Below are positions 12,466-51,290 of a stretch of 64,000 bases of DNA, piece after piece. The notes below the pieces were generated by a model. That model saw nothing but the letters and a program-made list of their open reading frames with translations. It was not told the origin of the DNA and did no database searches. This stretch comes from Candidatus Woesearchaeota archaeon. GTDB lineage: Archaea; Nanobdellota; Nanobdellia; SCGC-AAA011-G17; PNOQ01. The stretch is taken from contig CAZPJW010000001.1 of assembly GCA_964587005.1 (NCBI GenBank), positions 11,986 to 75,985 on the forward strand, in the 5' to 3' direction. A program made the position numbers and the translations under genes. Position 1 is the stretch's first letter. Each line of letters starts with the position of its first letter.

Positions 12466-12506
12466 TTTATATACACTACGCCCGTACGTGGCAAGCTGGC
12501 AACTTA
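12466..12506 (-). promoter_or_regulatory. TATA box (12466-12474) plus conserved upstream 21-bp motif (12486-12506) of the LAGLIDADG gene
   Basis: Minus strand reads AAGTTGCCAGCTTGCCACGTAC, then 11 nt, then TATATAAAC, then 20 nt, then ATG. The same arrangement and a near-identical motif (AAGTTGTCATCTTGTCACGTAC) occur at 62444-62484 upstream of the second LAGLIDADG gene. Confidence 0.45.
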
Positions 12507-12553
12507 AAAAGAGCTTCAAAACATTTATATACCTTACCGAAATCCTATTCATA

Positions 12554-22582: not shown

Positions 22583-22586
22583 AAAG

Positions 22587-31854: not shown

Positions 31855-33780
31855 ATGGACAAGATAATCTCAATAGTAGAAAAAAAAGAAGATTTAAACA
31901 AAATCCTACCAGAATCAAACTTCATAATAACTCCTTTTGAAGAAATAAAAGACATTCTAGATAAAAAAAACATAAAATGTGAACTAATAAGCAATTACAT
32001 AACAAAAGACTCAAACAAAAAATCTTTATGGTGGCTAAAAGACTGGTCAGATAAAAAACTTCTAAATAAAAAAAACTTCAAAGAATTAATCACGTACAGA
32101 GGAATCTCATTATGGTGGTTTTCAGATTTCTGGTTTTATTATCACGTTGTACACAAAAACATCGTACAAAACATAATACACCATTGTGAAACAATTCAAA
32201 ATATTCTAGAAAAAGAAAAACCTAAGAAAATAATTATTCTAGGAAAAGAATCTCTAATAAACAAAGTAACAATCTTAGCAGCAAAAGAAAGAAATATCAA
32301 AACAAAAATAATAAACTCCCCAATCCAAGAAAGAATAAAATCAACAATTGACCACAAAAAACCATATTTCTTAGAATCATTAAAAGAAACAAAATTCATA
32401 ATCAGAAATATTCTCTCAAAAACAATCCACAAAAACTACGAACCAAATCATTCAAACAAAAAAATACTTTTCTCTACATACACTTCTTCAAAACAAAACT
32501 CAACAGATCCATTAACTGGAGAATCAAAAAAGCAAGATATCATATTCGGTCAAATTATAGATGAACTAAAAGACAAAGCAGACATAAAATTAACAGACAT
32601 AGATTACACTCCCGCCCTAGGATTAAGAACTATAAAAGAAAATAAAGAAAATTATATTCCTTTTGAACATTACTATAATAAAGAAGCAAAAAAGAGAGTA
32701 AGGCAACACAAAAAAATATTAAAAAAACAATGGAAGATTCTAAAAAATAATAAAAAATTCCAAGATTCACTAAACTACAACGGAATTCCACTCTGGCCAT
32801 TACTAAAAAATAAATTCAAGTTTTTCTTCTTAAACAGATCTCCAGAAGCAATCAAATGCATAGAAACAAGTTTAAATTTAATAAAAAAAGAATCTCCAAA
32901 AGTAGTTTTCTCAGTAGATGAAACAAGCATGTATTCAAGAGCAATAATAGTTGCAGCAAAAGCAAATAAAATCCCAACACTCGGAATACAACACGGAATG
33001 ATTTTCGATGAATCCTTTGAATACCTACATCTAAAAAATGAAGTTCATCCAAAGCTTTCAGCCAAAGCACCATTCTGCCCAATAGCAGACACAACATTTG
33101 TATATGGAAAATACACACACGACATCCTAACAAATATAGGAAACTATCCAAAGAAAAATGTAAAAATTACTGGACAACCAAGATATGACTTCCTTCCCAG
33201 AATAAACCAACTATTCAAAAAAGAAGACGTCTACAAAGACTTCAATCTAGATCCAAATAAAAAATTAGTAGTATTCACAACAGAGGCATTAGAAAAAGAA
33301 GAATGTGGAGATTTTTCAAACGCGGTCTTCAAGGGAGTAGAAGAATTAGGAGATGTAAACTTCATAGTAAAACTGCATCCAAGAGAACATGAAGACTTCC
33401 ATACCCTATCAAAAAACTATAAAATTCCATCAAAAGTAGTAAAAGACTACAATACATTCAAAATTCTGCATGCATGCGACACAGTAATAGTAATGCACTC
33501 CACAATTGGATTAGAGGCTGCAATGATTGACAAACCGGTTGTAGTTGTTAATGTAACAGGAAATCCGGACGTAATTTCTTACACAGATGAGGGCATAGCA
33601 ATAGCAGCATACAAACATTCAGACGTCGCAAAAACAATTCACAAAACACTGCATGATAAAGAAACTCTAAATAAATTGGAGAAAGGGAGAAAGGAATTCG
33701 TAAAAAGACACGTACACAGCACAGATGGAAAAGCAACACAAAGAATCTCAGAAGAAATACTCAAACTGATTAAACAATAA
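31855..33780 (+). CDS. GT-B-like glycosyl/glycerophosphotransferase-like protein (TagF/KpsS-like C-terminal domain)
   Basis: The C-terminal half has FIVKLHPREHEDF (a K.HP motif) and STIGLEAAMIDKPVVVVN, resembling CDP-glycerol glycerophosphotransferase or capsule-synthesis families. The N-terminal about 300 aa is unassigned. Confidence 0.4.
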   Translation: MDKIISIVEKKEDLNKILPESNFIITPFEEIKDILDKKNIKCELISNYITKDSNKKSLWWLKDWSDKKLLNKKNFKELITYRGISLWWFSDFWFYYHVVHKNIVQNIIHHCETIQNILEKEKPKKIIILGKESLINKVTILAAKERNIKTKIINSPIQERIKSTIDHKKPYFLESLKETKFIIRNILSKTIHKNYEPNHSNKKILFSTYTSSKQNSTDPLTGESKKQDIIFGQIIDELKDKADIKLTDIDYTPALGLRTIKENKENYIPFEHYYNKEAKKRVRQHKKILKKQWKILKNNKKFQDSLNYNGIPLWPLLKNKFKFFFLNRSPEAIKCIETSLNLIKKESPKVVFSVDETSMYSRAIIVAAKANKIPTLGIQHGMIFDESFEYLHLKNEVHPKLSAKAPFCPIADTTFVYGKYTHDILTNIGNYPKKNVKITGQPRYDFLPRINQLFKKEDVYKDFNLDPNKKLVVFTTEALEKEECGDFSNAVFKGVEELGDVNFIVKLHPREHEDFHTLSKNYKIPSKVVKDYNTFKILHACDTVIVMHSTIGLEAAMIDKPVVVVNVTGNPDVISYTDEGIAIAAYKHSDVAKTIHKTLHDKETLNKLEKGRKEFVKRHVHSTDGKATQRISEEILKLIKQ

Positions 33781-33816: not shown

Positions 33817-34560
33817 ATGGAAAAAAAGAGAACTTTGGCTGTAATTCCTGCTAGAGGGGGCTCAAAAGGAATTCCACGAAAAAACATAAAACCATTTCTA
33901 GGAAAACCCCTAATCCACTACACGATAAACTTAGCTCTATCCTGCCCAGAAATAGACAAAGTAATTGTTTCAACTGATGATGATGAAATAGCTCAAATCT
34001 GCAAAGAAGCAGGAGCAGATGTACCCTTCAAAAGACCGGAAGAACTAGCAACAGACACATGTCCAAGTATCCCGGTAATACAACACGCAGTCAAATTCTT
34101 AGAAGATCAAGGAGAACACTATGACAATGTATTAATGCTAGAACCCACTGCACCACTAAGAACAAAAAAGATAGTTCAAGATGCAATCTTAGCACTAGAC
34201 GATGCAGAATCAGAAACTGTAGTTAGTGTTAGAGAATATGATATTGATTTCTCAGATGTTCTAGAAGGAGATCAAAATAATTTCCTACATGTTTTCTTAG
34301 AAACAAAAACTACAACAAGAAGGCAAGACACAAAAAACATCTACATAATGGACGCAGCAGTCTACGGAGCAAAAAGAGCTGCATTAATGAACAAAGACTT
34401 AATCATGTTCAACCCATACAAAGAAATGGCAGATCTAAAAACAAAAATGGTGGTTTCAGACCCAAGAGTATCTGTAGAAATAGATGCAAATGAACATTGG
34501 GATTACGCAGAATATTTATACAAAAAATATCAAAAATTAATTGAGGGGGAAGAAGAATGA
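33817..34560 (+). CDS. CMP-nonulosonate (N-acylneuraminate-type) cytidylyltransferase, NeuA/LegF/PseF family
   Basis: LAVIPARGGSKGIPRKNIKPFLGKPLIHYTI matches the acylneuraminate cytidylyltransferase signature. Length 247 aa. Confidence 0.75.
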   Translation: MEKKRTLAVIPARGGSKGIPRKNIKPFLGKPLIHYTINLALSCPEIDKVIVSTDDDEIAQICKEAGADVPFKRPEELATDTCPSIPVIQHAVKFLEDQGEHYDNVLMLEPTAPLRTKKIVQDAILALDDAESETVVSVREYDIDFSDVLEGDQNNFLHVFLETKTTTRRQDTKNIYIMDAAVYGAKRAALMNKDLIMFNPYKEMADLKTKMVVSDPRVSVEIDANEHWDYAEYLYKKYQKLIEGEEE

Positions 34561-35864
34561 TAAAACCTAAAAAACTAAGCTTTCCAAGATCGGAAGATTA
34601 TTGGAGAAGAGCACAAAAATACATACCAAACGGTTCAATGACAATTAGCATGGGACCAATAAGTTACATAACAAAGGTATCTCCAAAATACAATTGGAAA
34701 GGAAAAGGTTGTCATGTATGGGATGTAGATGGAAATAAATTCTTAGATCTTGCCCCCGGAGGATATTTAAAACTTTTAGGTTACAATTACAAACCATTAA
34801 CAAAAACAATAATCAAACAAGTAAAAGAAGGAAGCATATTCCAAATGCCACACGCTCTAGAAGTAGAAGCGGCAGAAGCAGTAATAGATGCAATCCCTTG
34901 TGGAGAAATGGTAAAATTTGCAAGAAACGGAGCAGACGTTTTAACAATGGGAGTAAGAGCAGCAAGGGCACACACCGGAAGAGACATGGTCCTATCTCAA
35001 GGATACCATGGAATTCATGATTGGTTCATTGGAACAACAGAACTAAACAAGGGTGTTCCAAAAAAAGTCACGGATATGACCAAAACTTTTGAATATAATG
35101 AGTTAGAAACTGTAAAAAAAACTTTTGAAAAATATCCAGATAAAATAGCAACAGTAGTTTTAGAACCAATGCAGTTAACAACTCCAAAGGATAATTACTT
35201 ACACAAATTAAAAAAAATAACTCATGACAACGGAGCAATTCTAATCTTCGATGAAATAATCTCCGGATTTAGATTCGCATTAGGCGGAGCAGGAGAATAC
35301 TTCGGAGTAAAACCAGATTTAGCATGCTTCGGAAAAGCAATGTCAAATGGATATTCATGTTCTGCATTGACAGGAAAAGCAGAAATCATGGATGAATTCA
35401 ACAAAGGAGCATTTTTCTCAACAACATATGGTGGAGAAACAATTGGTCTGGCAGCAACTAAAAAAACAATAGAAATCATGAAAGAAAAGAAAGTGCAAAG
35501 ACACAATTGGAAAGTCGGAACCTTGCTAAAAAAAGGTGTAGACAAAATAATCAAAGATAAAGGATTAGAAGAACATTATTCTTGCGATGGTCTCCCAGTA
35601 TGGACAGTAATCCAACCAAAAGAAGACAAAACTGGAACAGTGAACGAAAAGAACGGAATTCTTCAACAAGAAGCAATGCAACGAGGAATGTTAGCAGGTT
35701 TATTCCACGGACCTTCCTTTGCGCACCAAAAAGAGGATATAAGAAAGGGGCTAGAAATCTACAATGAATCTTTCAAAAAAGTAAAAAGATACATTGATTC
35801 TGGTAATGTAGAAAAACATATGCTCGGTAGTTTTGGTGGCAAGGTTTTTAGGAAAGTTGGTTAA
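34557..35864 (+). CDS. Class-III PLP aminotransferase (glutamate-1-semialdehyde aminomutase-like)
   Basis: FDEIISGFRFALGGAGEYFGVKPDLACFGKAMSNGYSCSA contains the FGK PLP-lysine motif of class III aminotransferases. Confidence 0.7.
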   Translation: MIKPKKLSFPRSEDYWRRAQKYIPNGSMTISMGPISYITKVSPKYNWKGKGCHVWDVDGNKFLDLAPGGYLKLLGYNYKPLTKTIIKQVKEGSIFQMPHALEVEAAEAVIDAIPCGEMVKFARNGADVLTMGVRAARAHTGRDMVLSQGYHGIHDWFIGTTELNKGVPKKVTDMTKTFEYNELETVKKTFEKYPDKIATVVLEPMQLTTPKDNYLHKLKKITHDNGAILIFDEIISGFRFALGGAGEYFGVKPDLACFGKAMSNGYSCSALTGKAEIMDEFNKGAFFSTTYGGETIGLAATKKTIEIMKEKKVQRHNWKVGTLLKKGVDKIIKDKGLEEHYSCDGLPVWTVIQPKEDKTGTVNEKNGILQQEAMQRGMLAGLFHGPSFAHQKEDIRKGLEIYNESFKKVKRYIDSGNVEKHMLGSFGGKVFRKVG

Positions 35865-36326
35865 ATGGTTAAGTTAGATCTTGGATGTGGGAGAACAAAA
35901 CGAAGAGGACATATAGGAATAGATATCTTTGATTACTCAAGAATTTATCCTCCCGGGGAATTTATTCAACAAAATCTCTCAGAGGGAATCCCCTTCAAAG
36001 ACAATGAAGTAGAAAGACTTCACTCCTCACACCTAATAGAACACCTGCCAGATCATTTCAACAAAGAAAAGCAAATAATAGAAAATGGTGTAGATTGGTT
36101 TATGGAAGAAATCCACAGAGTCTGTAAGCCGGGAGCAATAGTAGAATTAGAAGTTCCAATCATGAACTTTTGGGAATATCACAAAACAGTCTTCAGAAAA
36201 TCAGCATTTAAATGTCACGTTGCTCAAGGAATGTTTGACGAGCTCTCAAGAAAAAAGGTTTGGAATCGTTCCTTTCATTGGTACTCCTTATTTAATGTAA
36301 AAGTAATATTAAGGGTAAAAAAATGA
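35865..36326 (+). CDS. Small class I SAM methyltransferase (Methyltransf_11-like)
   Basis: VKLDLGCGRTKRRGHIGID (motif I) and HLIEHLPD (motif II/III region). Length 153 aa. Confidence 0.45.
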   Translation: MVKLDLGCGRTKRRGHIGIDIFDYSRIYPPGEFIQQNLSEGIPFKDNEVERLHSSHLIEHLPDHFNKEKQIIENGVDWFMEEIHRVCKPGAIVELEVPIMNFWEYHKTVFRKSAFKCHVAQGMFDELSRKKVWNRSFHWYSLFNVKVILRVKK

Positions 36327-37126
36327 AATCACTGAAAGAAATGCAAGATTTAACCGGAAAAGTTGCAATAATAACTGGGGCAGCTGGAGAGCTAGGAAAA
36401 GTTCACGCAGAAACTCTAGCTGAATTCAACTGCAATATTGTTCTAACTGATATTCAAGAAGAAAAACTGAAAGAATTAATTGAAGAACTTTCCTCAAAAT
36501 ATTCTTCAAGAATAATTGGAATAAAAACAGATTTATTCAAAAAAGAATCAATAGAAGAAACATTTCAAAAAGTCTTCGAAGAATTTGGAAGATTAGATAT
36601 TCTAATTAACAACGCACAATTTACTTGTGATGAAGACATAGAACCATTAGAAACTTTTGACAAAGAAGTATGGGAAAAAGTAATGGAAGTAAACGTAACT
36701 GGAACATTCCTATGTTGCCAACAGGCACTAAAATACATGAAAGAAAACTCCTCAATTATAAACATGAGTTCAATAATGGGAGTAATTATCCCAAATAACA
36801 AAATCTACGAAGGAATGGAACACAAGGGAAGAAAAATGAATTCTCCTTTAGTTTACACAACAAGCAAAGCAGCAATCATTGGAATGACAAAGTATCTTGG
36901 AGCAGAACTAGCAAAGAAAAAAATTAGAGTAAATTGTGTTTCTCCGGGGGGATTTGAAGCAGGACAGCAAGAATTCTTCAAAGAAAGATATGGAAATAAA
37001 GTTCCTTTAGGAAGAATGGCAAAAAAAGAAGAACTAAAGGGAGCAATTTTATATTTAGCATCAGATGCATCTTCATATTTAACCGGACACAACTTAATTC
37101 TTGACGGCGGAATGTCTCTTTGGTAA
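36323..37126 (+). CDS. Short-chain dehydrogenase/reductase (SDR)
   Basis: KVAIITGAAGELG (a TGxxxGxG cofactor site). YTTSKAAIIGMTKYL (YxxxK catalytic dyad). Downstream VNCVSPGGF. Confidence 0.75.
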   Translation: MKSLKEMQDLTGKVAIITGAAGELGKVHAETLAEFNCNIVLTDIQEEKLKELIEELSSKYSSRIIGIKTDLFKKESIEETFQKVFEEFGRLDILINNAQFTCDEDIEPLETFDKEVWEKVMEVNVTGTFLCCQQALKYMKENSSIINMSSIMGVIIPNNKIYEGMEHKGRKMNSPLVYTTSKAAIIGMTKYLGAELAKKKIRVNCVSPGGFEAGQQEFFKERYGNKVPLGRMAKKEELKGAILYLASDASSYLTGHNLILDGGMSLW

Positions 37127-37157
37127 AACTTATAAACCAAATATCTTTCCCCAAAAT

Positions 37158-38216
37158 ATGGCAGGAAGTGTTTTTGACAGCTTATCATACGCAGCCCTAT
37201 ATGAATTAGATAATCTTCTATTTGATAATGGATATGGAAAAATAGCAAGAGATTCTATAAATCTAGCCGATATAGCCAAGGGTAGTAGGGGCCTAGATAT
37301 TGGTTGCGGAACCGGAATCTCTACTTGTAAACTAGTGGATATGGTTCCGGGGATTAAAGTAAAAGGAATAGAAAAATCTGGAGCATTCCTAAATCTGGCA
37401 AAAGTCAAATTTGGATATGGCGATCTAAAAAGAACTCTTGAAAATATTGGAGAAGACCGACACCTTCCTGAAATACTTAAAAAACATAGGAGAAATTTAC
37501 CCGGCTTAGCATACCATCTATTAGTGCATGAAAGAAAATATGGGCCACATTCCAAAGACGGGGTTGTTGAACTGGAATCAGGCCACGCAGCAGAAGTGGC
37601 ACTCAAGGAAGGAGAAGAACCTTTCGATTTTGCATTACTAAATCAAGTAATACATTGGTTCATAAATTCTCCGCCAGAAGGAGAATCACATCCAGAATAT
37701 CAAAGAAAGGCATTAACCGCAATAAATAACACACTAAGGCCCGGAGGAAAATTAATTTTCAATACGTCCGGAGCAGACTTCAGATTCCATGATGAAAGAA
37801 TAAACAGAGGACATTTCATGTTCCACCCATACTACCAAATCTTCAACCAAGAGGTAGCAAGAAGGTTGGGCGGAGAAATAGTTGATGCTGAAAGATTTGA
37901 AGACAGAACTTATACATTCGATGATTCAAAAATAAGAGAAATGTTAGATAATACTGGTTTTAGAGTAACCGGAACTGCAATGATTGGAAAAGACTATGAA
38001 GATTTCAGCTTAATGAGGGAGCTTTGTATTGTTGGAGCACATATGACCCTTTTCGAAACAAACTGGGAAAGATCTGGAACAGACAAACCAATGCTTTCAG
38101 AAGAAGATAGAAATCTAATCTTAGAAGAAGCATTAGAAGTGGCAGAAAGAGAAAGTTCTGTAGATGCACAACCAGTAAGAGAAGGAATAGCACACTACGT
38201 TGCTATAAAAGAATGA
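37158..38216 (+). CDS. Class I SAM-dependent methyltransferase
   Basis: GLDIGCGTGISTCKL is motif I. Start taken at the internal Met (MAGSVFDSL) to remove the 26-nt overlap with the SDR gene. An alternative start is 37101. Confidence 0.55.
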   Translation: MAGSVFDSLSYAALYELDNLLFDNGYGKIARDSINLADIAKGSRGLDIGCGTGISTCKLVDMVPGIKVKGIEKSGAFLNLAKVKFGYGDLKRTLENIGEDRHLPEILKKHRRNLPGLAYHLLVHERKYGPHSKDGVVELESGHAAEVALKEGEEPFDFALLNQVIHWFINSPPEGESHPEYQRKALTAINNTLRPGGKLIFNTSGADFRFHDERINRGHFMFHPYYQIFNQEVARRLGGEIVDAERFEDRTYTFDDSKIREMLDNTGFRVTGTAMIGKDYEDFSLMRELCIVGAHMTLFETNWERSGTDKPMLSEEDRNLILEEALEVAERESSVDAQPVREGIAHYVAIKE

Positions 38217-39193
38217 AAAAACAAGATATTCTAGATATTTTTAACAATAAGGATTTTATAGAGATATATTTAGAAGATGAGGCAACAACCAGAGCATACG
38301 AACATCATTTCGGAAGACTCGCAGAGATTATGCCCATTCAAGAAGGAAATCGAATTTTAGATGTTGGATCTGCACACGGAGTCCCATCTTTATCTTTATT
38401 TGAAAAGCAACCAAAAATAGAAGTGGTAGCTTTGGATCCGGCAACAAATTTATTAGCCATTTCAAGAGCACTATTTAAAGGAACGAACATAGAAAAATTG
38501 TTGGCTGGTTTTGCCCATAACGGAGCTGTCCTGACATATTTAGCAAATCAACATCAAAGATGTTCCCCCCATGGAGAAAGAATCTCTTATGAAGAGGGAT
38601 TTGCAGAAGACATAGCGGGCGGACGCCTTGAAGAGGGATTAAATTACATATTCCCTGGCGGATTTAATCATATAATGGGAAGTTTAGCATTACATTGGCT
38701 AATCAATCCAGAAAAAGCATTTCAAAATTTTCATGAATTACTAGCAAAAAATGGAACTGTTGGAATTTCAAGTGCCTCATGGAGATATCGGGCATCCAAT
38801 CCAGGATTAGATAACGAAAGAAGGATCGAAAACGCTCCATTTATGACAGCATTCTACGAAAACCTCGAATCTGCCTTAGACAGAGGAAAAAGCGAAAGTT
38901 CCGAAGAACCAAGAATATGGGATAAAAGCAAAGTAGAAAAATTACTCACTGAAACCGGATTTGAATTAATAGGATATTCAGAAGAAAAAGTTCCTTTCTT
39001 ATTTGGAGATATGCTAATGGCATGTAAGGGCGGGGCTTTCTATTCTAGTGACCGAATGAGCAGCACCGATAGCAAAGAATTAACCCAAATAGTAGAAGAA
39101 ACACTCGCAAAAACATTGAGAGAGGAAGACCCTTTCGAATCAATAAATCATTACTATGAAATCTGCCCATATATCTTGGCAAAAAAAGTATAA
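38213..39193 (+). CDS. Class I SAM-dependent methyltransferase
   Basis: RILDVGSAHGVPS is a motif-I-like sequence. Same size and architecture as the neighbouring methyltransferase. Confidence 0.5.
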   Translation: MKKQDILDIFNNKDFIEIYLEDEATTRAYEHHFGRLAEIMPIQEGNRILDVGSAHGVPSLSLFEKQPKIEVVALDPATNLLAISRALFKGTNIEKLLAGFAHNGAVLTYLANQHQRCSPHGERISYEEGFAEDIAGGRLEEGLNYIFPGGFNHIMGSLALHWLINPEKAFQNFHELLAKNGTVGISSASWRYRASNPGLDNERRIENAPFMTAFYENLESALDRGKSESSEEPRIWDKSKVEKLLTETGFELIGYSEEKVPFLFGDMLMACKGGAFYSSDRMSSTDSKELTQIVEETLAKTLREEDPFESINHYYEICPYILAKKV

Positions 39194-39235
39194 AGATTCA
39201 TTAAACTTATAAATCTCATTTAATTCTAAAAATTA

Positions 39236-39976
39236 ATGAAAAAGTTAGACGTGATAATTCCTTGTTTAAATGAGGAAAAAATTCTGGAACAATCCATCAC
39301 AACATTAAGAGGTTTCTTAAAAGAAAATATGTCAGATTATGATTATTCCATAACTATAGCAGATAATGGTTCAAAAGACTCAACTTTAGAAATTGCAAAA
39401 AGACTTTCGGAAGAGCATCCCGAAGTCGGATACAATAGATTAGAACAAAGGGGCAGAGGAAGAGCACTAAAAAAATCTTGGTCAGAATCAGATGCAGACA
39501 TAATAAGTTATATGGATGTGGACTTATCAACAGATCTGAAAGCATTCCGTCCAATGGTAGATGCAATAGCAAACGACAATTACCATTTAGCCACAGGAAC
39601 TAGATTAACAAAAGATTCAGAAACAAAAAGATGTTTCAAAAGAGAACTTACTTCAAGAGTCTACAACATCTTAATCAAATTAATCCTAAATACAAAATAC
39701 TCGGATGCCCAATGTGGATTTAAGGCTGTTGACAAAAAAACATTTCAAAAACTTCTTCCACATTTAAGAGACAACGAATGGTTCTTAGACACTGAATTAA
39801 TGACGATCGCAGAAAAAACAGATCATAACATATACGAAATACCTGTACTTTGGATAGAAGACATGGACTCAAGAGTAAATGTCTTAGACACCGCAGTAAA
39901 ATACATAAGAGATTTAATAAAAATAAGGTTTAGGCTAAAAAACATAAAAAATGAACTACAAAAAACTTCTGAATAA
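39236..39976 (+). CDS. GT2 glycosyltransferase
   Basis: LDVIIPCLNEEKILEQSITTL...IADNGSKDST...YMDVDLSTD (DxD motif). Confidence 0.7.
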   Translation: MKKLDVIIPCLNEEKILEQSITTLRGFLKENMSDYDYSITIADNGSKDSTLEIAKRLSEEHPEVGYNRLEQRGRGRALKKSWSESDADIISYMDVDLSTDLKAFRPMVDAIANDNYHLATGTRLTKDSETKRCFKRELTSRVYNILIKLILNTKYSDAQCGFKAVDKKTFQKLLPHLRDNEWFLDTELMTIAEKTDHNIYEIPVLWIEDMDSRVNVLDTAVKYIRDLIKIRFRLKNIKNELQKTSE

Positions 39977-41456
39977 TCCAAAATTCATAATAATCGCATT
40001 ATTTTTGTTCACCCTTCTAATTAGAATAATTTTCAAAAATGGGGGGTTATTCCATTTTGACAGTTATGCAGATGCAAAAACCGTAGAAGATATGTTGGAT
40101 ATGGGGAAAATGCAATATTCATACGCATATGGTTCTCCAACTACAATGATACTAGTATTTTTATTCTTTGTAATAGATCACTTACTAACCGGAGCAAGTC
40201 AAGCAGAAGCAGCATATTTTTTAGTAACTTTTCTAACTGCGGCATTATCAGTAGTCTTACTATACCTAATCACAAAAAAAATAACAAAAAACAATTTCAT
40301 TAGCACAAGCGCAGCGTTACTATTTTCATTAAGCCCAATCTTTCTCGCAGTAACAACTTACCCCAAAACACATGCCATATCGGTATTCTTCGGTCTACTC
40401 GGGGGATATTTGCTCTTGATCTCTTCAGAAAAATACTCATTAAAGTACTTAATTTTATCTGGCCTATCTTTCGGATTAGCAATTGGAACAAGACCATTCG
40501 CAGCACTGTATGTTTTGCCATTCGCACTGCTATACTTCGGTCCAAAAATAAAAAACAAAGCACTAATTCTAGATAAGAAAAAATTCAATCTAAAAAATAT
40601 AATAACTTTTTGCATTTCAACAGCAATAATCCCAATATTATTATTCCTACCATGGTGGCTAGAACAAGGGTTTTCAGATTTCCTTAGCAAAATAAATCCC
40701 GAAGTAGAAACGCGTGGAGGCTGGCTAGGGTTATTCTCAGAAAATACAATGCCATCATTCCTAAGTATAAAAGATTCATTTACCTGGTTTGGGATGGCAT
40801 TAGCGGGCTTAGGAAGTATCTACTTATACCTAAAAAAGAAAAAATATTTACTTTTCGTATTATTATTTTGGTTTGCAATAAATTTCTTCTTAATTGGGAA
40901 TCTAGCAAGGGTGCATGCGAGATTCCTCATACCAACATTCATCCCATTAGTAATCTTAATCGCTTTGGGACTAAGAATGATTCATCTAAAAAATAAAATG
41001 GCAGCAATAGTCATACTCATAATTTTACTTGGAAGCATGTTCTCTATTGCTTACCCAATAATCAACTACCGACATAATTACTCTGGAACAAAAGAATTCG
41101 CTTTATTCGTACAAGAAAATACTCCGGCAAATTCAGTAATAATGTCAAACGACCTAGGTTTTTTCATAGAATACTATGGAGATAGAACAAAGATAGCCCA
41201 TCCAAGAAATGGAAATGATGAAGATATCGCCACATTTGTACAAGAACTAAAGAATTATCTAAATTCTGGAACCGAAGTTTATGCAACTGAAGAAGGGTTT
41301 GGAATAGATCCCGGACAAAAAGTATTGGCATCACTTCAAGAAAATTTTGAAATAGAGTTCATCGGAGAAAAAGAATCTGAATGGTATGGCGGGAGTTCAA
41401 TAGAGTTAAAACCATATAACGAAAAGTTATTTAAACTAGTCCTAAAAAACCAATAA
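39951..41456 (+). CDS. GT-C-like multi-TM membrane glycosyltransferase (ArnT/PMT_2-like)
   Basis: 501 aa with about 11 TM helices. Has an early extracytoplasmic loop carrying acidic residues (HFDSYADAKTVEDMLDMG). Has a C-terminal soluble domain. Confidence 0.4.
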   Translation: MNYKKLLNNPKFIIIALFLFTLLIRIIFKNGGLFHFDSYADAKTVEDMLDMGKMQYSYAYGSPTTMILVFLFFVIDHLLTGASQAEAAYFLVTFLTAALSVVLLYLITKKITKNNFISTSAALLFSLSPIFLAVTTYPKTHAISVFFGLLGGYLLLISSEKYSLKYLILSGLSFGLAIGTRPFAALYVLPFALLYFGPKIKNKALILDKKKFNLKNIITFCISTAIIPILLFLPWWLEQGFSDFLSKINPEVETRGGWLGLFSENTMPSFLSIKDSFTWFGMALAGLGSIYLYLKKKKYLLFVLLFWFAINFFLIGNLARVHARFLIPTFIPLVILIALGLRMIHLKNKMAAIVILIILLGSMFSIAYPIINYRHNYSGTKEFALFVQENTPANSVIMSNDLGFFIEYYGDRTKIAHPRNGNDEDIATFVQELKNYLNSGTEVYATEEGFGIDPGQKVLASLQENFEIEFIGEKESEWYGGSSIELKPYNEKLFKLVLKNQ

Positions 41457-41459
41457 TAC

Positions 41460-42617
41460 ATGAAAATCTGCCTCTGTATAACCCGATTAAAAAGTGATTT
41501 AAGCGAAGCAATAAGCAAAAATTTCTTTAGGTTAGCCGAAGAATTGACAGACCAAGGACATGACGTAACAATGTATTCTCCGGTAAGCATTGAAACCCCA
41601 TCAAAAACAAAATTAGTAGTATACTCAAAAGAACATTCATATCAATCCAAATTCTCGGTTTTAAAAAATATGAAAGAACTCTCAAAAAGAATAAATAAAG
41701 ATCATTCCGATTTTGATGTTGTACACATCCACGCAGGATTCCTATTAGAAGCATATTTACTAAGCAAAAAGATAAACAAATTCAAAACTCCTCTTTATAT
41801 CACATTATGGCAACCATATTTTGGGTTTAAAGAGTTTAGTAAAATACCTCATTTTATATTCATAAAACCAAAGGATTATCTTTACCACTTTATACTAAAT
41901 TCATTTCTAGTGACTCATTTTATGGGAGGCAAAGTAAAAAATAAATACGATAAAATAATAGTCTCATCAAATTACCAAAAAGAGCAACTAACAAAAATTC
42001 TGCCAGAAAAAATCATAAAAACAATACCAAATGGTTTAATTGACTCAGAAATAAAAAAAGAATCTTTCAACGAACAACCAAATATACTATATATAGGACA
42101 TTTTACTTCTTACAAAGGGACAGATACACTAATAAAATCCCTATATTTTATAAAAAAAGAATACCCCGAAACAAAACTAACTCTCGCATACAGCGGATAT
42201 GGTTCAAAACAAGAAATAGTAGAATTAATAAAAAAATTAAAATTACAAAACAATGTAATTCTAAAAAACAAAATAGATGTCTATCCAGAATTAGCAAAAA
42301 ATGACTTCCTAATCATCCCATACAAAGCAACAATAGGAACAAGTCATTATCACAATGTACTTTTAGAAGCAATGTCCGTTGGTATTCCCATTCTCGCAAG
42401 CAAAATTGGTTCAATCCCCGAGCTAATTACTGATGAAGAAACAGGTATATTTATTAATCCAAAAAAACCCCACCTTATAGCAAAAAAAGTTATAAGCACA
42501 TTTTCAAATAAAGAACTAATAAAAAAATTATCTGAAAACGAAAGAAAACTATTTCGGGAAAGATTTATAATTAAAAGAGTCGCACAACAACATCTAGATA
42601 TGTACGGTGAGCAATAA
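41460..42617 (+). CDS. GT4 (group 1) glycosyltransferase
   Basis: C-terminal EAMSVGIPILASKIGSIPELITDEETGIFINP is the E..E GT4 signature. Confidence 0.65.
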   Translation: MKICLCITRLKSDLSEAISKNFFRLAEELTDQGHDVTMYSPVSIETPSKTKLVVYSKEHSYQSKFSVLKNMKELSKRINKDHSDFDVVHIHAGFLLEAYLLSKKINKFKTPLYITLWQPYFGFKEFSKIPHFIFIKPKDYLYHFILNSFLVTHFMGGKVKNKYDKIIVSSNYQKEQLTKILPEKIIKTIPNGLIDSEIKKESFNEQPNILYIGHFTSYKGTDTLIKSLYFIKKEYPETKLTLAYSGYGSKQEIVELIKKLKLQNNVILKNKIDVYPELAKNDFLIIPYKATIGTSHYHNVLLEAMSVGIPILASKIGSIPELITDEETGIFINPKKPHLIAKKVISTFSNKELIKKLSENERKLFRERFIIKRVAQQHLDMYGEQ

Positions 42618-43336
42618 TGAAGGAAGAGGGAATTAGAAAACACTATCAAAAAGAATACGTAGTAAATAAATACGAAAAAAAAAGAATTCTTTCGTACGGT
42701 GGAAAAATAGTAGATTCTAATGAAAAAGAAATAATTCTAAATTTACTAAGGGGCCCAGAAACAAAAAGGGTATTGGATTTGGGTGCAGGAACTGGGAGAA
42801 TATCACTATTAATGGCAAAAGAAGGATATGATGTAACAAGTTTTGATCAATCTGATGTAATGTTAAAAACTATAGCGGAAAAAAGTAAAGAAGAAAATTT
42901 AGATTTAACCTTAATCAAAGGAGATGCATTCAATCTACCTTTCCAAGACAACACTTTTGATGCTTGTGTAAGTCTAAGAGTATTATGGCATCTGCCACAT
43001 CCAGAAAAAGTAATAAGTGAGGTTCAAAGGGTTCTAAAAAAAGATGGAATATTTATCTTTGATCTATTAAACAAAAAAAGTCTAAGATATCCTTACACTC
43101 CATTAGCTAACTTATTTGTATACACAAAACTAATGAACATAACTGAAATGAAAGGATTGATTGCTTCACAAAATTTAGGAATAGAATCACAAAGACAACA
43201 TTTCATATTCCCATATTTACTCTACAGACATTCTCCTAAATTCATTGCAGAACCACTAAACAAATTAGAAAATAAGCTACAAAACACAAAAATGAAGAAA
43301 TACTCTTCAGTAATATACTTCAAAGCGAAAAAATGA
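42617..43336 (+). CDS. Class I SAM-dependent methyltransferase
   Basis: RVLDLGAGTGRISLLMAKEGYDVTSFDQS (motifs I and post-I). Motif II region ACVSLRVLWHL. Confidence 0.6.
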   Translation: MKEEGIRKHYQKEYVVNKYEKKRILSYGGKIVDSNEKEIILNLLRGPETKRVLDLGAGTGRISLLMAKEGYDVTSFDQSDVMLKTIAEKSKEENLDLTLIKGDAFNLPFQDNTFDACVSLRVLWHLPHPEKVISEVQRVLKKDGIFIFDLLNKKSLRYPYTPLANLFVYTKLMNITEMKGLIASQNLGIESQRQHFIFPYLLYRHSPKFIAEPLNKLENKLQNTKMKKYSSVIYFKAKK

Positions 43337-44280
43337 ACAATCCATTAACAAATAAAATGGTTTTAAGAGCAATCGGAATAATCATATTTATTTTAATAGT
43401 AATTGAATTAGACCTCACAAAAACAACCGAAATATTGAGTGAAACTAAACTAGCTTATTTTTTAGCTGGTCTGGCTTTATTCATTCCACATTTATTCTTA
43501 AAGGTATATAGGTGGAGCAGAATATTATACTTTCAAAGAATCAGAATAAAATTCAAACAACTTATCCACCCGTACGTAGGATCATATGGTCTGGGAATTA
43601 TTACTCCTTGGAAAGTTGGAGAGACCACAAGAATTTTCTATCTAAGAAGTAAAAAAGTTCCATTGGGGACCGCTTCATTTAGTGCATTAATTGATAGACT
43701 GGTAGATGTTTCATTCTTTATGTTAATTGGGGTACTCAGTATGTTTTTCTTATTTTCATATTTCAAAAGCTATTTGGTGGGCGTAACTTTAGCAATTGTC
43801 TTGATAATTGCAGGAGCAATGCTAATCATAAAATTCAGACACAAATTATTCAAATTTGCAACCAAATTTATAATCCATAAAAAAATAAGAGATAAAACAG
43901 ACATAACCATACGAGAAATTTGGGCAGAATTTAAGAAATTCAGATTCATGGCATACGTTGAATTGTTCTTGATAACTGCCTTGTCCTGGTTATTTTTCTA
44001 TTTTGAAGTATACCTATTCTCAATGGCCCTAAGTATTCCATTAACTCTCTGGCACGTAATAATCTTGGTCTCGATTGCAAGTATTGTCAACATGCTCCCA
44101 ATAACCGTATCCGGAATTGGAACAAGAGATGCAACCTTCGCATTCCTATTTGGCATATTTGGGTTTGCAACAGAACAAGCAATAGCACTGTCATTATTAA
44201 TTCTATTTATGTGGGTAGTAAATGCCCTATTCTGCCTGGTTTTCTGGTGGGAAAGACCCATACAAATTAAAAATGCATAA
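43333..44280 (+). CDS. Flippase-like membrane protein (LPG-synthase TM region / UPF0104 family), paralog of 19284..20168
   Basis: 8 TM helices with the conserved block LPITVSGIGTRDATFAFLFG. Confidence 0.5.
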   Translation: MNNPLTNKMVLRAIGIIIFILIVIELDLTKTTEILSETKLAYFLAGLALFIPHLFLKVYRWSRILYFQRIRIKFKQLIHPYVGSYGLGIITPWKVGETTRIFYLRSKKVPLGTASFSALIDRLVDVSFFMLIGVLSMFFLFSYFKSYLVGVTLAIVLIIAGAMLIIKFRHKLFKFATKFIIHKKIRDKTDITIREIWAEFKKFRFMAYVELFLITALSWLFFYFEVYLFSMALSIPLTLWHVIILVSIASIVNMLPITVSGIGTRDATFAFLFGIFGFATEQAIALSLLILFMWVVNALFCLVFWWERPIQIKNA

Positions 44281-44315
44281 ATTTTATAAAGCAAATATTT
44301 GTTCCTTTTGTATAA

Positions 44316-45431
44316 ATGGAGATAGAGGTAGCTAATAAAAAAATTGGTGAAAATCATCCAGTTCTAATTATAGCTGAGGCCGGAGTATGCCATGATGGAG
44401 ACATAGAAAAAGCTAAAGAATTAGTAGACATTGCAAAAGATTGTGGGGTAGATATAGTAAAATTCCAAACTTGGAAAACCGAAGAATTATGTCTAGAGGA
44501 CTCAGAAAAAGCAGAATATCAAAAAGAACAAACTGGCACAGATGAGAATCAATTTGATATGATAAAAAAGTTAGAACTAAGCTATGAAGATTTCATAGAA
44601 TTAAGAAGTTATTGTGATAAAAAAGGAATTATTTTCATGTCTACACCTGACGAAGAAAAAAGTGCCAAATTTTTAATAGAGTCAGTAAATATTCCTGCAA
44701 TAAAAATAGGTTCTGGAGAAATAACAAACCACCATTATCAAAAATATCTGGCAGCTTTCAAAAGACCACTGATCATTTCTACAGGAATGGGGACAATGGA
44801 AGATGTAAAAACAATTAAAGAAATAACGGATGGCCAAAACAACGATAAAGTTATTTTCTTACATTGTACAACAGATTACCCTGCAAAGTATGAAGATTCA
44901 AACATCAATGCAATGGTAACCATGAAGAAAGAACTTGGAACCATAATTGGTTATTCTGATCACACAATGGGGATATATGTTCCACTAGTTGCAGTTGCAT
45001 TAGGAGCAGAAGTAATAGAAAAACATTTCACCTACAGTAGGCTAGCTGAAGGTCCAGATCACAAAGCATCCTTAACTCCCGACCAATTAAAAGAGATGGT
45101 AGAAGAAATAAGAGAATTAGAAAAAATACCCCCAGAAGAAAGAAAAAAACATGTAAGAAATGCAATTGGAAACAAAATGTTTGATCTAATAGCCGGATCA
45201 CATGAAAAGAAAGCAACAGAAAGAGAAGAGAAAAATAAATCTTACATGCAAAAGTCAATAGTGATAAAAGAAGACACACCAGCTGGAACAAAATTAGAAG
45301 AAGGCCACTTATTGATGAAAAGAGCAGACAAGAGGGGTATCGCAGCAAACAAATACACAGAACTACTCGGAAAAGAAACCCTGAGGAACATGAAAAAAGA
45401 CGAAATAATTACATTCGACGATATAAAATAG
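44316..45431 (+). CDS. neuB: Nonulosonic acid synthase (NeuB family: N-acetylneuraminate/legionaminate/pseudaminate synthase) with C-terminal SAF domain
   Basis: ENHPVLIIAEAGVCHDGDIEKAKELVDIAKDCGVDIVKFQTWKTEEL is the NeuB TIM-barrel signature. A SAF-like domain occupies about 100 C-terminal residues. Confidence 0.8.
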   Translation: MEIEVANKKIGENHPVLIIAEAGVCHDGDIEKAKELVDIAKDCGVDIVKFQTWKTEELCLEDSEKAEYQKEQTGTDENQFDMIKKLELSYEDFIELRSYCDKKGIIFMSTPDEEKSAKFLIESVNIPAIKIGSGEITNHHYQKYLAAFKRPLIISTGMGTMEDVKTIKEITDGQNNDKVIFLHCTTDYPAKYEDSNINAMVTMKKELGTIIGYSDHTMGIYVPLVAVALGAEVIEKHFTYSRLAEGPDHKASLTPDQLKEMVEEIRELEKIPPEERKKHVRNAIGNKMFDLIAGSHEKKATEREEKNKSYMQKSIVIKEDTPAGTKLEEGHLLMKRADKRGIAANKYTELLGKETLRNMKKDEIITFDDIK

Positions 45432-45444
45432 CCATCTAAATAAA

Positions 45445-46230
45445 ATGGGAAAATTAAAAGTAAATAAATTAATTGTAAGAAGCAAAAATCTTCCAGAGAA
45501 ACTAGACGGAATAAGAATACTTCACCTTTCTGATTTCCATTTTGTGAAGGGAGATAAAATTGTAAACAAATTAATAACCAACTTAAAAAATCAAAACTAT
45601 GATCTAACTTGTCTTACAGGAGATTATGCAGATAGTGAAAAGGGATTAAAAATATTAAAACAAGTTTTTAGGGCAATAAAAACAAAAAACATCTTCGCAA
45701 TTTTGGGGAACCATGATTATAGATATTTAGATAAATTAAAAGAAATTCTAAACAATTCAAAAATCAAATTACTTGTAAACGAAGGAACAAATCTAACATT
45801 AAACAATGAAAATCTATTCATAGGTGGAACTGACGTAACTGTATATGATGATGTTCAAGCGGGGCTATCTGGCAGAGCAGACGTAGAAAAAACCATGAAA
45901 AACAGTCAAGACGGCTTCAAACTCTTACTAACTCATTCTCCAGATACAATAGAAGATGCAGTAAAAAACAATGCCGATCTGGTTTTAGCAGGCCATACTC
46001 ACGGAGGACAAATAAGACTTCCACTAATTGGAGCAATTTACGCTTCTTCAAAATATGGAACAAAATACGCATCCGGGCTATTCAAGATAAACAATACAAA
46101 AATGTATGTCACAAAAGGCATTGGAAAAGTAAAAGTCAACTTAGGGAAAAAGAGACTAAAAATCCCTTTAACAAATATAAGATTAAATTGCCCATCAGAA
46201 ATATCTATAATCACATTGAGAGGTGCTTAA
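45445..46230 (+). CDS. Calcineurin-like metallophosphoesterase
   Basis: ILHLSDFHF (motif I), GNHDY (motif III) and LAGHTHGGQ (motif V). Confidence 0.65.
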   Translation: MGKLKVNKLIVRSKNLPEKLDGIRILHLSDFHFVKGDKIVNKLITNLKNQNYDLTCLTGDYADSEKGLKILKQVFRAIKTKNIFAILGNHDYRYLDKLKEILNNSKIKLLVNEGTNLTLNNENLFIGGTDVTVYDDVQAGLSGRADVEKTMKNSQDGFKLLLTHSPDTIEDAVKNNADLVLAGHTHGGQIRLPLIGAIYASSKYGTKYASGLFKINNTKMYVTKGIGKVKVNLGKKRLKIPLTNIRLNCPSEISIITLRGA

Positions 46231-50832: not shown

Positions 50833-51290
50833 ATGGATGGGTTTCGGAGGAAGAATACAAAACAATAGTAAAAAACGTACCTATTTGTTGTGTAGATTTA
50901 GTTATTAGAAATAATGAAGGAAAAGTCCTTTTAGTAAAAAGAAAAAACCACCCCTTAAAAGGCGAATGGTGTGTTCCTGGTGGAAGAATTCTTAGGGGAG
51001 AAAAGATAAAAGATGCTGCCAAAAGAAAAGCAAAAGATGAGTTAGGATTAGATCTAGAAGTAAAAGATAAAATAGGTACATATGAGTTATTCTTCGAAAA
51101 ATCCGCACACGGACCAGAAATTGGCGCACACTCAATTTGCATCGCGGTAGAAACAACACCCACAAACTCAGAAGAAATAACTCTAGATGGAGATCACTCA
51201 GAATATGAGTTCTTCGATAAAATAGAAGAAGACTGGCACCCATATGTAAAGGAAATCATAAAAAAAAGTGGAAACGATACGAATAGCTGA
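50829..51290 (+). CDS. NUDIX hydrolase (GDP-mannose mannosyl hydrolase-like)
   Basis: GEWCVPGGRILRGEKIKDAAKRKAKDELGL is a Nudix box. Length 153 aa. Directly downstream of gmd. Confidence 0.65.
   Translation: MNGWVSEEEYKTIVKNVPICCVDLVIRNNEGKVLLVKRKNHPLKGEWCVPGGRILRGEKIKDAAKRKAKDELGLDLEVKDKIGTYELFFEKSAHGPEIGAHSICIAVETTPTNSEEITLDGDHSEYEFFDKIEEDWHPYVKEIIKKSGNDTNS

Follow-up and report, generated by a model that had tools for sequence, protein, structure and literature searches.

A nonulosonate locus of a DPANN-like archaeon with a GDP-perosamine-type cassette and no linked NeuC-type epimerase

We analysed a 64-kb stretch of archaeal DNA (the window) in which a glycosylation island carries a gene for a nonulosonate synthase (NeuB). 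The locus has intact genes to make, activate and probably attach a sialic-acid-like nine-carbon sugar. An initial annotation had called this pathway complete-looking; however, the hydrolysing 2-epimerase or hydrolase and the N-acetylhexosamine (HexNAc) dehydratase are both absent from the window, and the segment between neuB and the flippase gene wzx holds genes of GDP-mannose and perosamine metabolism. On the best reading that we can offer, a tentative one, GDP-perosamine would replace the legionaminic precursor and feed NeuB, giving a 5-hydroxy analogue of legionaminic acid. The remaining genes are best explained as a conserved legionaminic-type core that has been kept, comprising a LegI-like synthase, a NeuA/LegF-like CMP-transferase with a class-III aminotransferase and an SDR, a TagF/BFO_1060-like GT-B protein and Wzx.

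Pfam profiles were run against all sizeable open reading frames (ORFs) of the window and NCBIfam models against its glycan genes. Relatives came from GTDB genomes and metagenomes; L-numbers denote relative DNA loci and P-numbers homologous proteins.

A nonulosonate synthase and its partner genes

The genes assigned to synthesis, activation, tailoring and transfer are as follows.

44316..45431, plus strand: nonulosonate synthase of the NeuB/LegI type with a C-terminal SAF domain, 371 aa (PF03102, SAF and TIGR03569)
33817..34560, plus strand: predicted CMP-nonulosonate synthetase (NeuA/LegF/PseF type), 247 aa (CTP_transf_3, 89 bits; PseF model)
34557..35864, plus strand: class-III (GSA-aminomutase-like) aminotransferase, 435 aa (PRK06209, 374 bits)
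36323..37126, plus strand: PtmA-like SDR, 267 aa (adh_short_C2, 196 bits; PtmA model, 148 bits over the full length, under the cut-off of 350)
31855..33780, plus strand: GT-B (TagF/KpsS-like) protein, 641 aa (partial Pfam and NCBIfam matches)

The synthase matches PF03102 with 297.9 bits (residues 36-271) and SAF with 32.9 bits (residues 314-371). On TIGR03569 (NeuB_NnaB) it scores 393.3 bits, narrowly under the cut-off of 399.65, against 229.4 bits on PseI (cut-off 340.25), and its matches in the PDB include Neisseria meningitidis NeuB (188 bits) and Bacillus subtilis SpsE (185 bits). The metal, phosphoenolpyruvate (PEP) and sugar residues of the meningococcal enzyme, which we take to be E25, K53/Q55, E134, H215, E234/H236, D247 and R314 in the numbering of the 1XUZ structure paper, are all conserved, in the motifs EAGVCH, KFQT, GSGE, SDHT, EKH, GPD and MKR and including the arginine of the SAF domain. 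We assign the protein, on its sequence, to the nonulosonate synthases of the NeuB/LegI type, as neither a PseI nor a KDO8P synthase; as the initial annotation had supposed, it does not group with the KDO-8-P/DAHP synthases. Sequence alone cannot separate NeuB from LegI, and it is the JGI label of the relatives ("N,N'-diacetyllegionaminate synthase") and their neighbours, with a LegC/Per-like DegT aminotransferase in 71 of 77 loci that hold a homologous NeuB, that point to the legionaminic side. A neighbour-joining tree nests the window NeuB in a 20-member DPANN clade whose members are NeuC-linked where the context is known. The NeuBs of the DPANN clade (window, L088 and L005) have about 20 extra residues in the linker that joins TIM barrel and SAF domain (residues ~272-300); this insertion is longer still in L128 and absent in Neisseria, Vibrio and Campylobacteraceae.

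The cytidylyltransferase scores 179.8 bits on PseF (cut-off 205.7) against at most 52 bits on KdsB models. In the PDB it matches CMP-Neu5Ac synthetases with 123, 115 and 81 bits and KdsB with 30 bits; its N-terminal nucleotide-binding motif, PARGGSKGIPRKN, aligns with the solved enzymes, and it is 68% identical to the L005 orthologue. These scores agree with the expectation that it would fall apart from KdsB, and we predict a CMP-nonulosonate synthetase of the NeuA/LegF/PseF kind; with the PseF cut-off not reached, its sugar specificity is left unassigned.

The trio of NeuA, class-III aminotransferase and SDR is kept in relatives and stands next to NeuB as a trio also in the distant loci L100 and L118; in 8 of 161 loci, homologues are found close to NeuB. 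A class-III aminotransferase adjoins a cytidylyltransferase in the lipopolysaccharide locus of Legionella pneumophila serogroup 6 (PMC3694923), and in Flexibacter maritimus an 8-amino nonulosonate has been described (PMC3210612). The aminotransferase and the SDR are a probable nonulosonate tailoring pair. Because the closest solved relatives of the former after GSA aminomutase (GSAM, 166 bits) are aminoglycoside C-6' aminotransferases (126 bits), a putative step in which the nonulosonate is oxidised and then transaminated is a reasonable inference.

For transfer, the initial annotation had proposed the GT-B protein, and in part this stands. Its Pfam matches (Glyphos_transf 44.9, Epimerase_2 42.4 and Capsule_synth 21.6 bits) all lie inside residues 374-636, and its NCBIfam matches, to the BFO_1060 family (86.4 bits, cut-off 200) and TIGR04396 (73.1 bits, cut-off 125), cover residues ~482-640 only; the motifs KLHPRE and TDEG are present. 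Members of the BFO_1060 family in Tannerella are genetically proven pseudaminic (Pse) or legionaminic (Leg) acid transferases (PMC5420450). The gene adjoins NeuA, and homologues stand beside NeuB in L008, L056 and L111. The match to BFO_1060 is thus weak but specific and C-terminal; it is, however, partial, and homologues also occur away from NeuB, in L168 and L170, which are NeuB-free within the stretch fetched (~9-10 kb beyond Per). We propose the protein tentatively as a candidate CMP-nonulosonate transferase.

Canonical precursor steps are absent from the window

The scans of the 64-kb window found no NeuC/LegG hydrolysing 2-epimerase, no PseG, no LegB/PseB/PglF-type HexNAc 4,6-dehydratase and no hexapeptide-repeat (LbH, LegH/PglD-type) N-acetyltransferase, and a tblastn search of the whole window with the NeuC-like protein of a relative gave a best E value of 0.23. 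The window's sole Epimerase_2 match lies in the C-terminal half of GT-B. We considered this protein as a disguised NeuC and rejected the idea: NCBIfam returns glycosyltransferase families only, and the relative's NeuC-like protein gives no alignment with it. The canonical pseudaminic set is missing as well, with no NCBIfam match to PseB, PseG or PseH in the window; the PseC model gives 313 bits for the DegT-family gene at 51268-52374 and 263 bits for that at 26945-28042, both under the cut-off of 423.5. Nor does the window hold ManB (phosphomannomutase) or a dedicated ManC, its only nucleotidyltransferase being an unassigned domain of a fusion protein at 23915-26077 (described below).

This arrangement is unusual among relatives. 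We compared 77 other NeuB loci that extend at least 5 kb to either side, and 75 of them encode a homologue of Epimerase_2. In all five DPANN-clade members with known context (P0002, P0005/L088, P0011/L005, P0013 and L008) the Epimerase_2 gene follows neuB directly, and the window is the lone NeuC-less member of the six whose gene context was seen. The legionaminic pathway of Halorubrum needs LegG (PMC6137143).

A second type of NeuC-less cluster was seen in L131 (8171-14807) and L166 (9977-13992). It consists of NeuB, a methyltransferase or LbH acetyltransferase, AP_endonuc_2 (a xylose-isomerase-like TIM barrel) and a CBS-DegT protein, with no 4,6-dehydratase within ~20 kb and with ASIS/ASTD replacing GSGE in NeuB; in L131 the CBS-DegT gene is followed by genes for a CTP_transf_3 protein and a KpsS-like protein.

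The segment between neuB and wzx has been exchanged

L088, the nearest relative for which DNA was available, has the same gene order as the window on either side of this segment. Identities are 73% for the class-III aminotransferase, 75% for the SDR, 85% for GT2, 74% for PMT_2, 65% for GT4, 66% for the methyltransferase, 65% for LPG_synthase_TM, 69% for NeuB and 59% for Wzx. Within the block between SDR and NeuB, synteny starts at GT2; the window methyltransferase at 37101-38216 is only 33% identical, and the second methyltransferase has no clear counterpart. Between neuB and wzx, L088 encodes Epimerase_2, a weak DegT, a methyltransferase, a FemAB-like protein, a DegT and a Polysacc_synt_2-type dehydratase, plausibly a complete legionaminic set to judge by these families. 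In the window, seven genes occupy this segment and none of the seven is orthologous to those of L088. The precursor-supply segment has been exchanged relative to the relatives, and the new cassette repeats the functional layout of a hydrolase slot, a DegT-like protein, a FemAB-like protein, a dehydratase and an aminotransferase.

45445..46230, plus strand: soluble metallophosphoesterase, 13 bp after neuB, in the slot held by NeuC/LegG in every relative examined (Metallophos, 58 bits)
46223..47353, plus strand: divergent DegT-family pyridoxal phosphate (PLP) enzyme with a 37-aa insertion (DegT, 126.8 bits; catalytic Lys and PLP-binding Asp kept)
47346..48422, plus strand: FemAB/GNAT-like acyltransferase (Acetyltransf_6, 54 bits; FemAB, 45 bits; TIGR03019, 112 bits)
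48426..49787, plus strand: CBS-domain GT2 of the polyprenyl-phosphate sugar synthase type, ArnC/AglJ-like (Glycos_transf_2 91.9, CBS 70, ArnC 66 and AglJ 63 bits)
49789..50832, plus strand: GDP-mannose 4,6-dehydratase, Gmd (TIGR01472, 405.6 bits, cut-off 415, against 76.6 on the LegB model)
50829..51290, plus strand: Gmm-type Nudix protein, GDP-mannose mannosyl hydrolase-like (PRK15434, 78.6 bits, cut-off 146)
51268..52374, plus strand: predicted GDP-perosamine synthase/LegC-family aminotransferase, Per (perosamine synthetases in the PDB, 361-364 bits; LegC-family model, 367.6 bits, cut-off 420)
52358..53830, minus strand: Wzx-type flippase, convergent with the block and the conserved right-hand anchor of the exchanged cassette (Polysacc_synt, 85 bits; 59% identical to its counterpart at the same position in L088)

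From NeuB to Per the genes form one tightly packed run in the same direction, within a block of 21 genes (29995-52374) that all point one way with intergenic gaps of -26 to +42 bp. An identical NeuB protein and the same gene order occur on JGI contig Ga0105013_1000796 (64.5 kb, metagenome 3300007510) and on contigs from three further samples. The order NeuB-metallophosphoesterase-DegT-FemAB was thus recovered on independent contigs from four samples and is therefore not an assembly artefact.

The metallophosphoesterase has all its motifs intact (DxH, GD, GNH[D/E], H and GHxH, as D30/H32, G59-D60, G88-N89-H90, H164 and G183-H184-x-H186), and these are invariant or nearly so in 36 homologues. 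Its NCBIfam matches are YaeI (124.8 bits, cut-off 188) and LpxG (86.5 bits, cut-off 350), and a search with its AlphaFold 2 model (pLDDT 90) returned the generic superfamily only (Mre11, SoxB, TT1561 and NadN, TM score ~0.5). Guilt by association was tried and gave no function, the contexts of homologues being unrelated and the structural match generic: of two near homologues, one of them clearly bacterial, one lies with acetolactate synthase, phosphate transporter and peptidase genes and the other with flagellar genes (L006). We regard the protein as a candidate NDP-sugar hydrolase or phosphatase.

PDB matches of the divergent DegT protein span residues 25-200 only. The weak DegT of the relatives is not its orthologue; with a DegT protein in L168 it shares 36% identity over 169 residues. 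FemAB-like genes occupy the same position in relatives, but at 24% identity, and another lies between NeuB and Gmd in L128. The N-acyltransferase that the initial annotation had sought now has a candidate in this FemAB/GNAT protein, the only acyltransferase candidate in the window, which may act on the 4-amino sugar. The CBS-GT2 was considered as a PtmE-like CBS-nucleotidyltransferase and discarded, its catalytic domain being a genuine ArnC/AglJ-type GT2.

Gmd is the sole 4,6-dehydratase in the window. Its best match in the PDB is the Aquifex aeolicus enzyme (2z1m, 388 bits), with seven other Gmd structures at 311-368 bits, and it is 74% identical to Gmd of L168; on this evidence we class it as a true Gmd. 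The Nudix protein matches 1rya with 67.7 bits, its catalytic His aligned and its Nudix box reduced (RK..DE), and is 43% identical to a Nudix protein encoded between Gmd and Per in L169. Homologues of Per are named 'perosamine synthetase' by JGI; product stereochemistry is unreadable from sequence. Three Nanoarchaeota metagenome-assembled genomes (MAGs) encode fusions of ~595 aa (P0255, P0269 and P0308) that join an NTP_transferase domain to a Per-like DegT domain 51-53% identical to the window Per.

A possible GDP-perosamine route and its alternatives

The exchanged cassette could be a functional analogue of the one it replaced, starting from GDP-mannose. Gmd would convert GDP-mannose to GDP-4-keto-6-deoxymannose, Per would convert this to GDP-perosamine, and the FemAB/GNAT protein would N-acylate the product. 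D-perosamine is 4-amino-4,6-dideoxy-D-mannose, and its N-acylated form differs from the LegI substrate, 2,4-diacetamido-2,4,6-trideoxy-D-mannose, at C2 alone (OH for NHAc). Because N-acyl-perosamine is already manno-configured, no 2-epimerase would be needed, only release from GDP. Gmm-type Nudix enzymes, such as Gmm of Escherichia coli, yield GDP and free sugar; here the Gmm-type Nudix protein would be the best candidate for free-sugar release by mechanism and the metallophosphoesterase a candidate by position. We infer that NeuB would then condense free N-acyl-perosamine with PEP, that the cytidylyltransferase would activate the C9 product with CMP and that the CMP-activated nonulosonate would be transferred to the glycan. 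The product would be 7-acylamino-3,7,9-trideoxy-D-glycero-D-galacto-nonulosonic acid (5-hydroxy-legionaminic acid, or 7-amino-7,9-dideoxy-Kdn). Put more broadly, and with slightly more reserve, this may be an undescribed GDP-mannose-based nonulosonate route in which the Nudix protein, the metallophosphoesterase or both displace the 2-epimerase non-orthologously and a LegI-like synthase makes a Kdn/legionaminic hybrid for a DPANN N-glycan.

NeuB is joined to Gmd-Per, without Epimerase_2 in the stretch seen, in two independent loci, L128 (8.9 kb) and P0244 (~14 kb, JGI 3300072015), suggesting that the GDP-mannose route may exist more widely. In L128 the order is NeuB-FemAB-Gmd-Per-AP_endonuc_2, followed by a homologue of a 153-aa ORF of the window. 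In P0244 the NeuB-Gmd-Per genes abut or overlap, and Per is 62% identical to the window Per. Directly upstream of NeuB-FemAB-Gmd-Per, L128 (195-8851) encodes a GNAT protein, a formyltransferase-like protein, FolD and 5-formyl-tetrahydrofolate cyclo-ligase, which suggests an N-formylated amino sugar or nonulosonate. The P0244 order is a PglF-like dehydratase, DegT, CTP_transf_3, NeuB (338 aa), a radical SAM/SPASM protein, a NeuB paralogue (385 aa, no SAF), Gmd and Per.

Several observations weigh against a flux of perosamine into NeuB. The NeuBs of L128, L131 and L166 belong to another subfamily, with GSPD, ASTD or ASIS replacing GSGE, so extrapolation from these loci is weak. A search for specificity-changing substitutions between the window NeuB and its NeuC-linked relatives found only five conservative changes at conserved positions (S/T, R/K, I/L, I/A and T/S), and nothing in the sequence suggests that the enzyme has adapted to a substrate with a 2-hydroxyl group. 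Around four of the five closest homologues of Per, the genes form stand-alone Gmd-(Nudix)-Per sets followed by GT4, with no NeuB in the DNA fetched (up to 10 kb to each side), and the Nudix gene is not specific to NeuB loci, since Gmd, Nudix and Per stand together in L169 as well. For the metallophosphoesterase no informative relatives came to light: a metagenome scan and a PDB sequence search gave none, and a protein search returned at most 41% identity besides the protein itself. In the literature searched, neither such a sugar nor a supply of perosamine to NeuB was described, which fits novelty and, equally, non-existence.

These points lead to a nearly equal account, itself rather unlikely when taken alone, in which the window holds two independent modules. 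The Gmd-Nudix-Per set, with the FemAB-like protein and the CBS-GT2, would make GDP- or dolichyl-phosphate-linked N-acyl-perosamine, while the core would make a legionaminic- or neuraminic-type acid from a precursor supplied by genes outside the window or by a host. The stand-alone Gmd-(Nudix)-Per-GT4 sets of related archaeal loci (L168-L171) and the unchanged conserved sites of NeuB both favour it. So does the ArnC/AglJ-like CBS-GT2, which with GT-C proteins, of which the window has two, would offer N-acyl-perosamine a self-sufficient alternative use and its own path to the glycan. L168 has homologues of the window AsnB-type protein, divergent DegT and GT-B without a nearby NeuB, and the window may thus be pieced together from two unrelated modules, one from an L088-type and one from an L168-type locus. 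The absence of NeuC covers the 64-kb window, and an unlinked neuC/legBCG set elsewhere in the genome is possible; Pse genes are scattered in Helicobacter pylori. Set against this, NeuC lies within the locus in nearly all other NeuB loci and adjacent to neuB in every clade relative with context, which would make an unlinked copy exceptional in this lineage, and DPANN genomes are small. Two modules also leave unexplained the metallophosphoesterase in the NeuC slot and the kept order of hydrolase slot, DegT and FemAB, and a free manno-hexosamine for NeuB would be an uncommon metabolite to scavenge.

The remaining explanations fare worse than a perosamine feed. An improbable one is that NeuB condenses PEP with mannose 6-phosphate or N-acetylmannosamine 6-phosphate and the metallophosphoesterase strips the 9-phosphate to give Kdn or Neu5Ac, making NeuC unnecessary; in a sub-variant the Gmm-like Nudix protein would free mannose from GDP-mannose for direct Kdn synthesis. 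Synthase-phosphatase pairs are established in animals (NANS/NANP) and in Bacteroides thetaiotaomicron (the KDN-9-P enzymes), and a phosphoesterase with an intact active site stands exactly at the relatives' NeuC position. Phosphorylated substrates have also been discussed for archaeal synthases, but the window NeuB keeps the Glu of GSGE, the bacterial non-phosphorylated type, without the E134D change tied to such substrates (PMC8208679). The enzyme is moreover essentially the same as in NeuC-linked relatives, the nearest named relatives of the metallophosphoesterase, YaeI and LpxG, are diesterases or pyrophosphatases rather than monoesterases, and the known 9-phosphatases are HAD enzymes. More improbable still, the exchange may have removed the precursor genes and left NeuB, NeuA and their partners as a functionless relic that has not yet decayed. 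Glycan loci are recombination hot spots, canonical upstream steps are missing from the window, and among its clade it is the only NeuC-less locus seen. However, NeuA, the aminotransferase, the SDR and NeuB are full length, similar in length to their relatives and intact at catalytic residues; together with the same protein and gene order in several samples, this argues for genes in use, and streamlined genomes would be expected to shed unused genes fast. There is very little chance that the listed genes form a canonical legionaminic or pseudaminic pathway, as the initial annotation had read them. NeuB and NeuA are of the right families, and three DegT proteins, a PtmA-like SDR and an oxidoreductase-nucleotidyltransferase fusion superficially recall LegC, PtmA, PtmF and PtmE (PMC4481668). 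Yet no LegG/NeuC, PseG, LegB/PseB/PglF or LbH acetyltransferase accompanies them in the window, and NeuB falls far short of the PseI cut-off. The dehydratase/aminotransferase pair is Gmd with a probable perosamine synthase, and the class-III aminotransferase, the SDR and the metallophosphoesterase are not canonical pathway enzymes.

Genomic setting and further genes

The host is an archaeon, as indicated by an AglB/STT3 protein with a WWDFG motif and by a form III RuBisCO with ribose-1,5-bisphosphate isomerase and AMP phosphorylase. The nearest NeuB homologues (60-72% identity) come from MAGs labelled Candidatus Woesearchaeota, with one at 55% from a Nanoarchaeia MAG. The earlier label "DPANN-like" is therefore reasonable, and the sequence is consistent with a marine archaeon of the Woesearchaeota type. 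The proposed link of the locus to AglB holds: the region is best explained as an N-glycan biosynthesis island of ~41 kb that runs from AglB (12488) to the convergent wzx. Its further features are listed below.

12488..15082, plus strand: AglB/STT3 oligosaccharyltransferase at the upstream end of the island (PF02516, 168.5 bits; STT3-PglB core domain; WWDFG in the translation)
23915-26077: Gfo/Idh/MocA-NTP_transferase-NUDIX fusion, followed by a methyltransferase and a DegT gene (Pfam)
29995..31824, plus strand: AsnB-type glutamine amidotransferase, first of the 21-gene block (TIGR01536, 502.9 bits; a 39% identical homologue adjoins Gmd-Per in L168)
35865..36326, plus strand: truncated methyltransferase-like protein, 153 aa (Methyltransf_11, 22.9 bits; DLGCG motif)
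37101..44280, plus strand: conserved middle block of two methyltransferases, GT2, GT-C/PMT_2, GT4, a methyltransferase and an LPG_synthase_TM membrane protein (Pfam)

By Pfam, the ORFs that had been named at the outset (NeuB with SAF, CTP_transf_3, class-III aminotransferase, SDR, metallophosphoesterase, the fusion, AglB and GT-B) are real and belong to the families given. The interval proposed for the pathway, 33817-45431, does hold NeuA, the class-III aminotransferase, the SDR and NeuB, but the DegT genes, the metallophosphoesterase and the fusion fall outside it; its remainder consists of three methyltransferases, the 153-aa methyltransferase-like ORF, GT2, GT-C (PMT_2), GT4 and LPG_synthase_TM. 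The DegT genes, counted as two, are three (26945-28042, 46223-47353, which is the divergent one, and 51268-52374). Within the middle block the first methyltransferase lies at 37101-38216, GT2 at 39236-39976 and GT-C/PMT_2 at 39951-41456. The homologue of the 153-aa protein that ends the NeuB-FemAB-Gmd-Per operon of L128 is 37% identical, and the AsnB-type protein is likely to amidate a sugar carboxylate.

The fusion had been counted as a pathway member, a role for which no specific similarity to PtmF or PtmE was found. As a PtmF-PtmE fusion it was rejected: domain-wise tblastn against bacterial Leg loci matched only a generic N-terminal nucleotide-binding motif and gave no Gfo matches, the Gfo domain being closer to inositol and UDP-N-acetylglucosamine (UDP-GlcNAc) 3-dehydrogenases. 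Together with the adjacent DegT protein, the fusion more closely resembles a 3-dehydrogenase/aminotransferase set that acts on UDP-GlcNAc to give 2,3-diamino sugars. Oddly, a domain that forms NDP-sugars and one that could cleave them are combined in this single protein.

Elsewhere in the island, the stretch 20160-23922 holds the other GT-C gene (PMT_2, minus strand) and two GT2 genes with a DUF2304 gene between them; GT2 paired with DUF2304 was also seen in L168 and L171. A double winged-helix regulator (AsnC/MarR-type; 28049-29017, minus strand) lies mid-island and is followed by a 234-aa ORF without a family match. Upstream of the island, large putative surface proteins with PKD, CARDB and LamG domains (2172-4721, minus strand, and 9913-11637, plus strand) flank SecD/SecF and are possible glycoprotein substrates or adhesins. 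Two free-standing ORFs resemble LAGLIDADG homing endonucleases (11764-12756 and 61787-62422, both minus strand), the first of which overlaps, on the strand opposite to AglB, the start called for that gene. An archaeal AMP salvage cluster at 56488-61725 comprises ribose-1,5-bisphosphate isomerase (IF-2B family), a HAD hydrolase, the form III RuBisCO, an AI-2E transporter and AMP phosphorylase (Glycos_transf_3/PYNP_C).

Discussion

The locus combines traits of several known systems. It shares with the CMP-legionaminic pathway (LegB/C/H/G/I/F of Campylobacter jejuni, Halorubrum sp. PV6, and Sps of Bacillus subtilis) a NeuB/LegI synthase with SAF, a NeuA/LegF-type cytidylyltransferase with a PtmA-like SDR beside it, a predicted GDP-linked LegC/Per-family 4-aminotransferase, a proposed substrate with the same 6-deoxy-4-amino-manno skeleton and, probably, use in a surface glycan; close relatives of this archaeon plausibly hold the full canonical set. 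The window differs from that pathway in having no LegG, no GlcNAc 4,6-dehydratase and no LbH LegH, and in carrying a metallophosphoesterase and a Gmm-like Nudix protein where a hydrolase is needed. With Gmd as the dehydratase, C5 of the product would bear OH and not NHAc. The GDP-perosamine pathway of E. coli O157, Vibrio cholerae O1 and Caulobacter likewise has Gmd, a Gmm-like Nudix protein and Per in one run, a trio also seen in the archaeal L169. Unlike that pathway, the window places the trio in an operon-like run with a nonulosonate synthase, has a FemAB-like protein in place of the usual LbH/GNAT perosamine N-acetyltransferase, and shows neither GT4 after Per nor ManB/ManC.

Animal NANS/NANP and the KDN-9-P synthase/phosphatase of Bacteroides also pair a NeuB-family synthase directly with a phosphoesterase and no NeuC, but the window phosphoesterase is calcineurin-like, not HAD, and its NeuB keeps the bacterial GSGE. 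Like the Tannerella forsythia transferases (Tanf_01245, TFUB4_00887 and BFO_1060), the GT-B protein is of the TagB/GT-B type, stands beside CMP-nonulosonate genes and has a matching C-terminal domain (86 bits) and the HP motif (PMC5420450); unlike them it has 641 aa against ~445 aa, matches over only its C-terminal ~160 residues and scores far under the cut-off of 200.

To our knowledge, the known nonulosonate routes all run through a 2-acetamido-manno sugar, by a NeuC/LegG-type enzyme, or, for Pse, through PseG. A NeuC-less architecture with a GDP-mannose/perosamine cassette in place appears to be new. The capacity of DPANN archaea for sialic-acid-like sugars is not: NeuB genes are common and annotated in Woesearchaeota-type MAGs, and large NeuB phylogenies already include archaea (PMC8208679). 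The rarity of archaeal nonulosonate capacity had accordingly been overstated, with at least 14 protein clusters at ≥60% identity in related MAGs. Literature searches on nonulosonic acids in DPANN archaea and on Woesearchaeota with legionaminic acid found nothing relevant. Host mimicry, as suggested in the initial annotation, has already been published for a DPANN nanohaloarchaeon, Ca. Nanohalococcus, whose sialic-acid gene set was given that interpretation (PMC10266531). There too the synthase genes lie in a glycosylation or horizontally acquired island; that set, however, is described as complete from UDP-GlcNAc (PMC10266531), whereas the window lacks the epimerase step and holds GDP-mannose-derived genes.

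Nonulosonic acids shape cell-surface recognition. A locus with an intact synthase, activation and transfer core minus the epimerase step is a natural experiment, pointing either to a GDP-perosamine feed or to a pathway split across a genome thought to be highly streamlined. A GDP-perosamine feed, if true, would add a class of sugar and an entry point from mannose metabolism, both of them new. Set beside its relatives, the locus also shows that surface-glycan cassettes are swapped between DPANN lineages, as O-antigen loci are in bacteria, which bears on surface variation in episymbionts.

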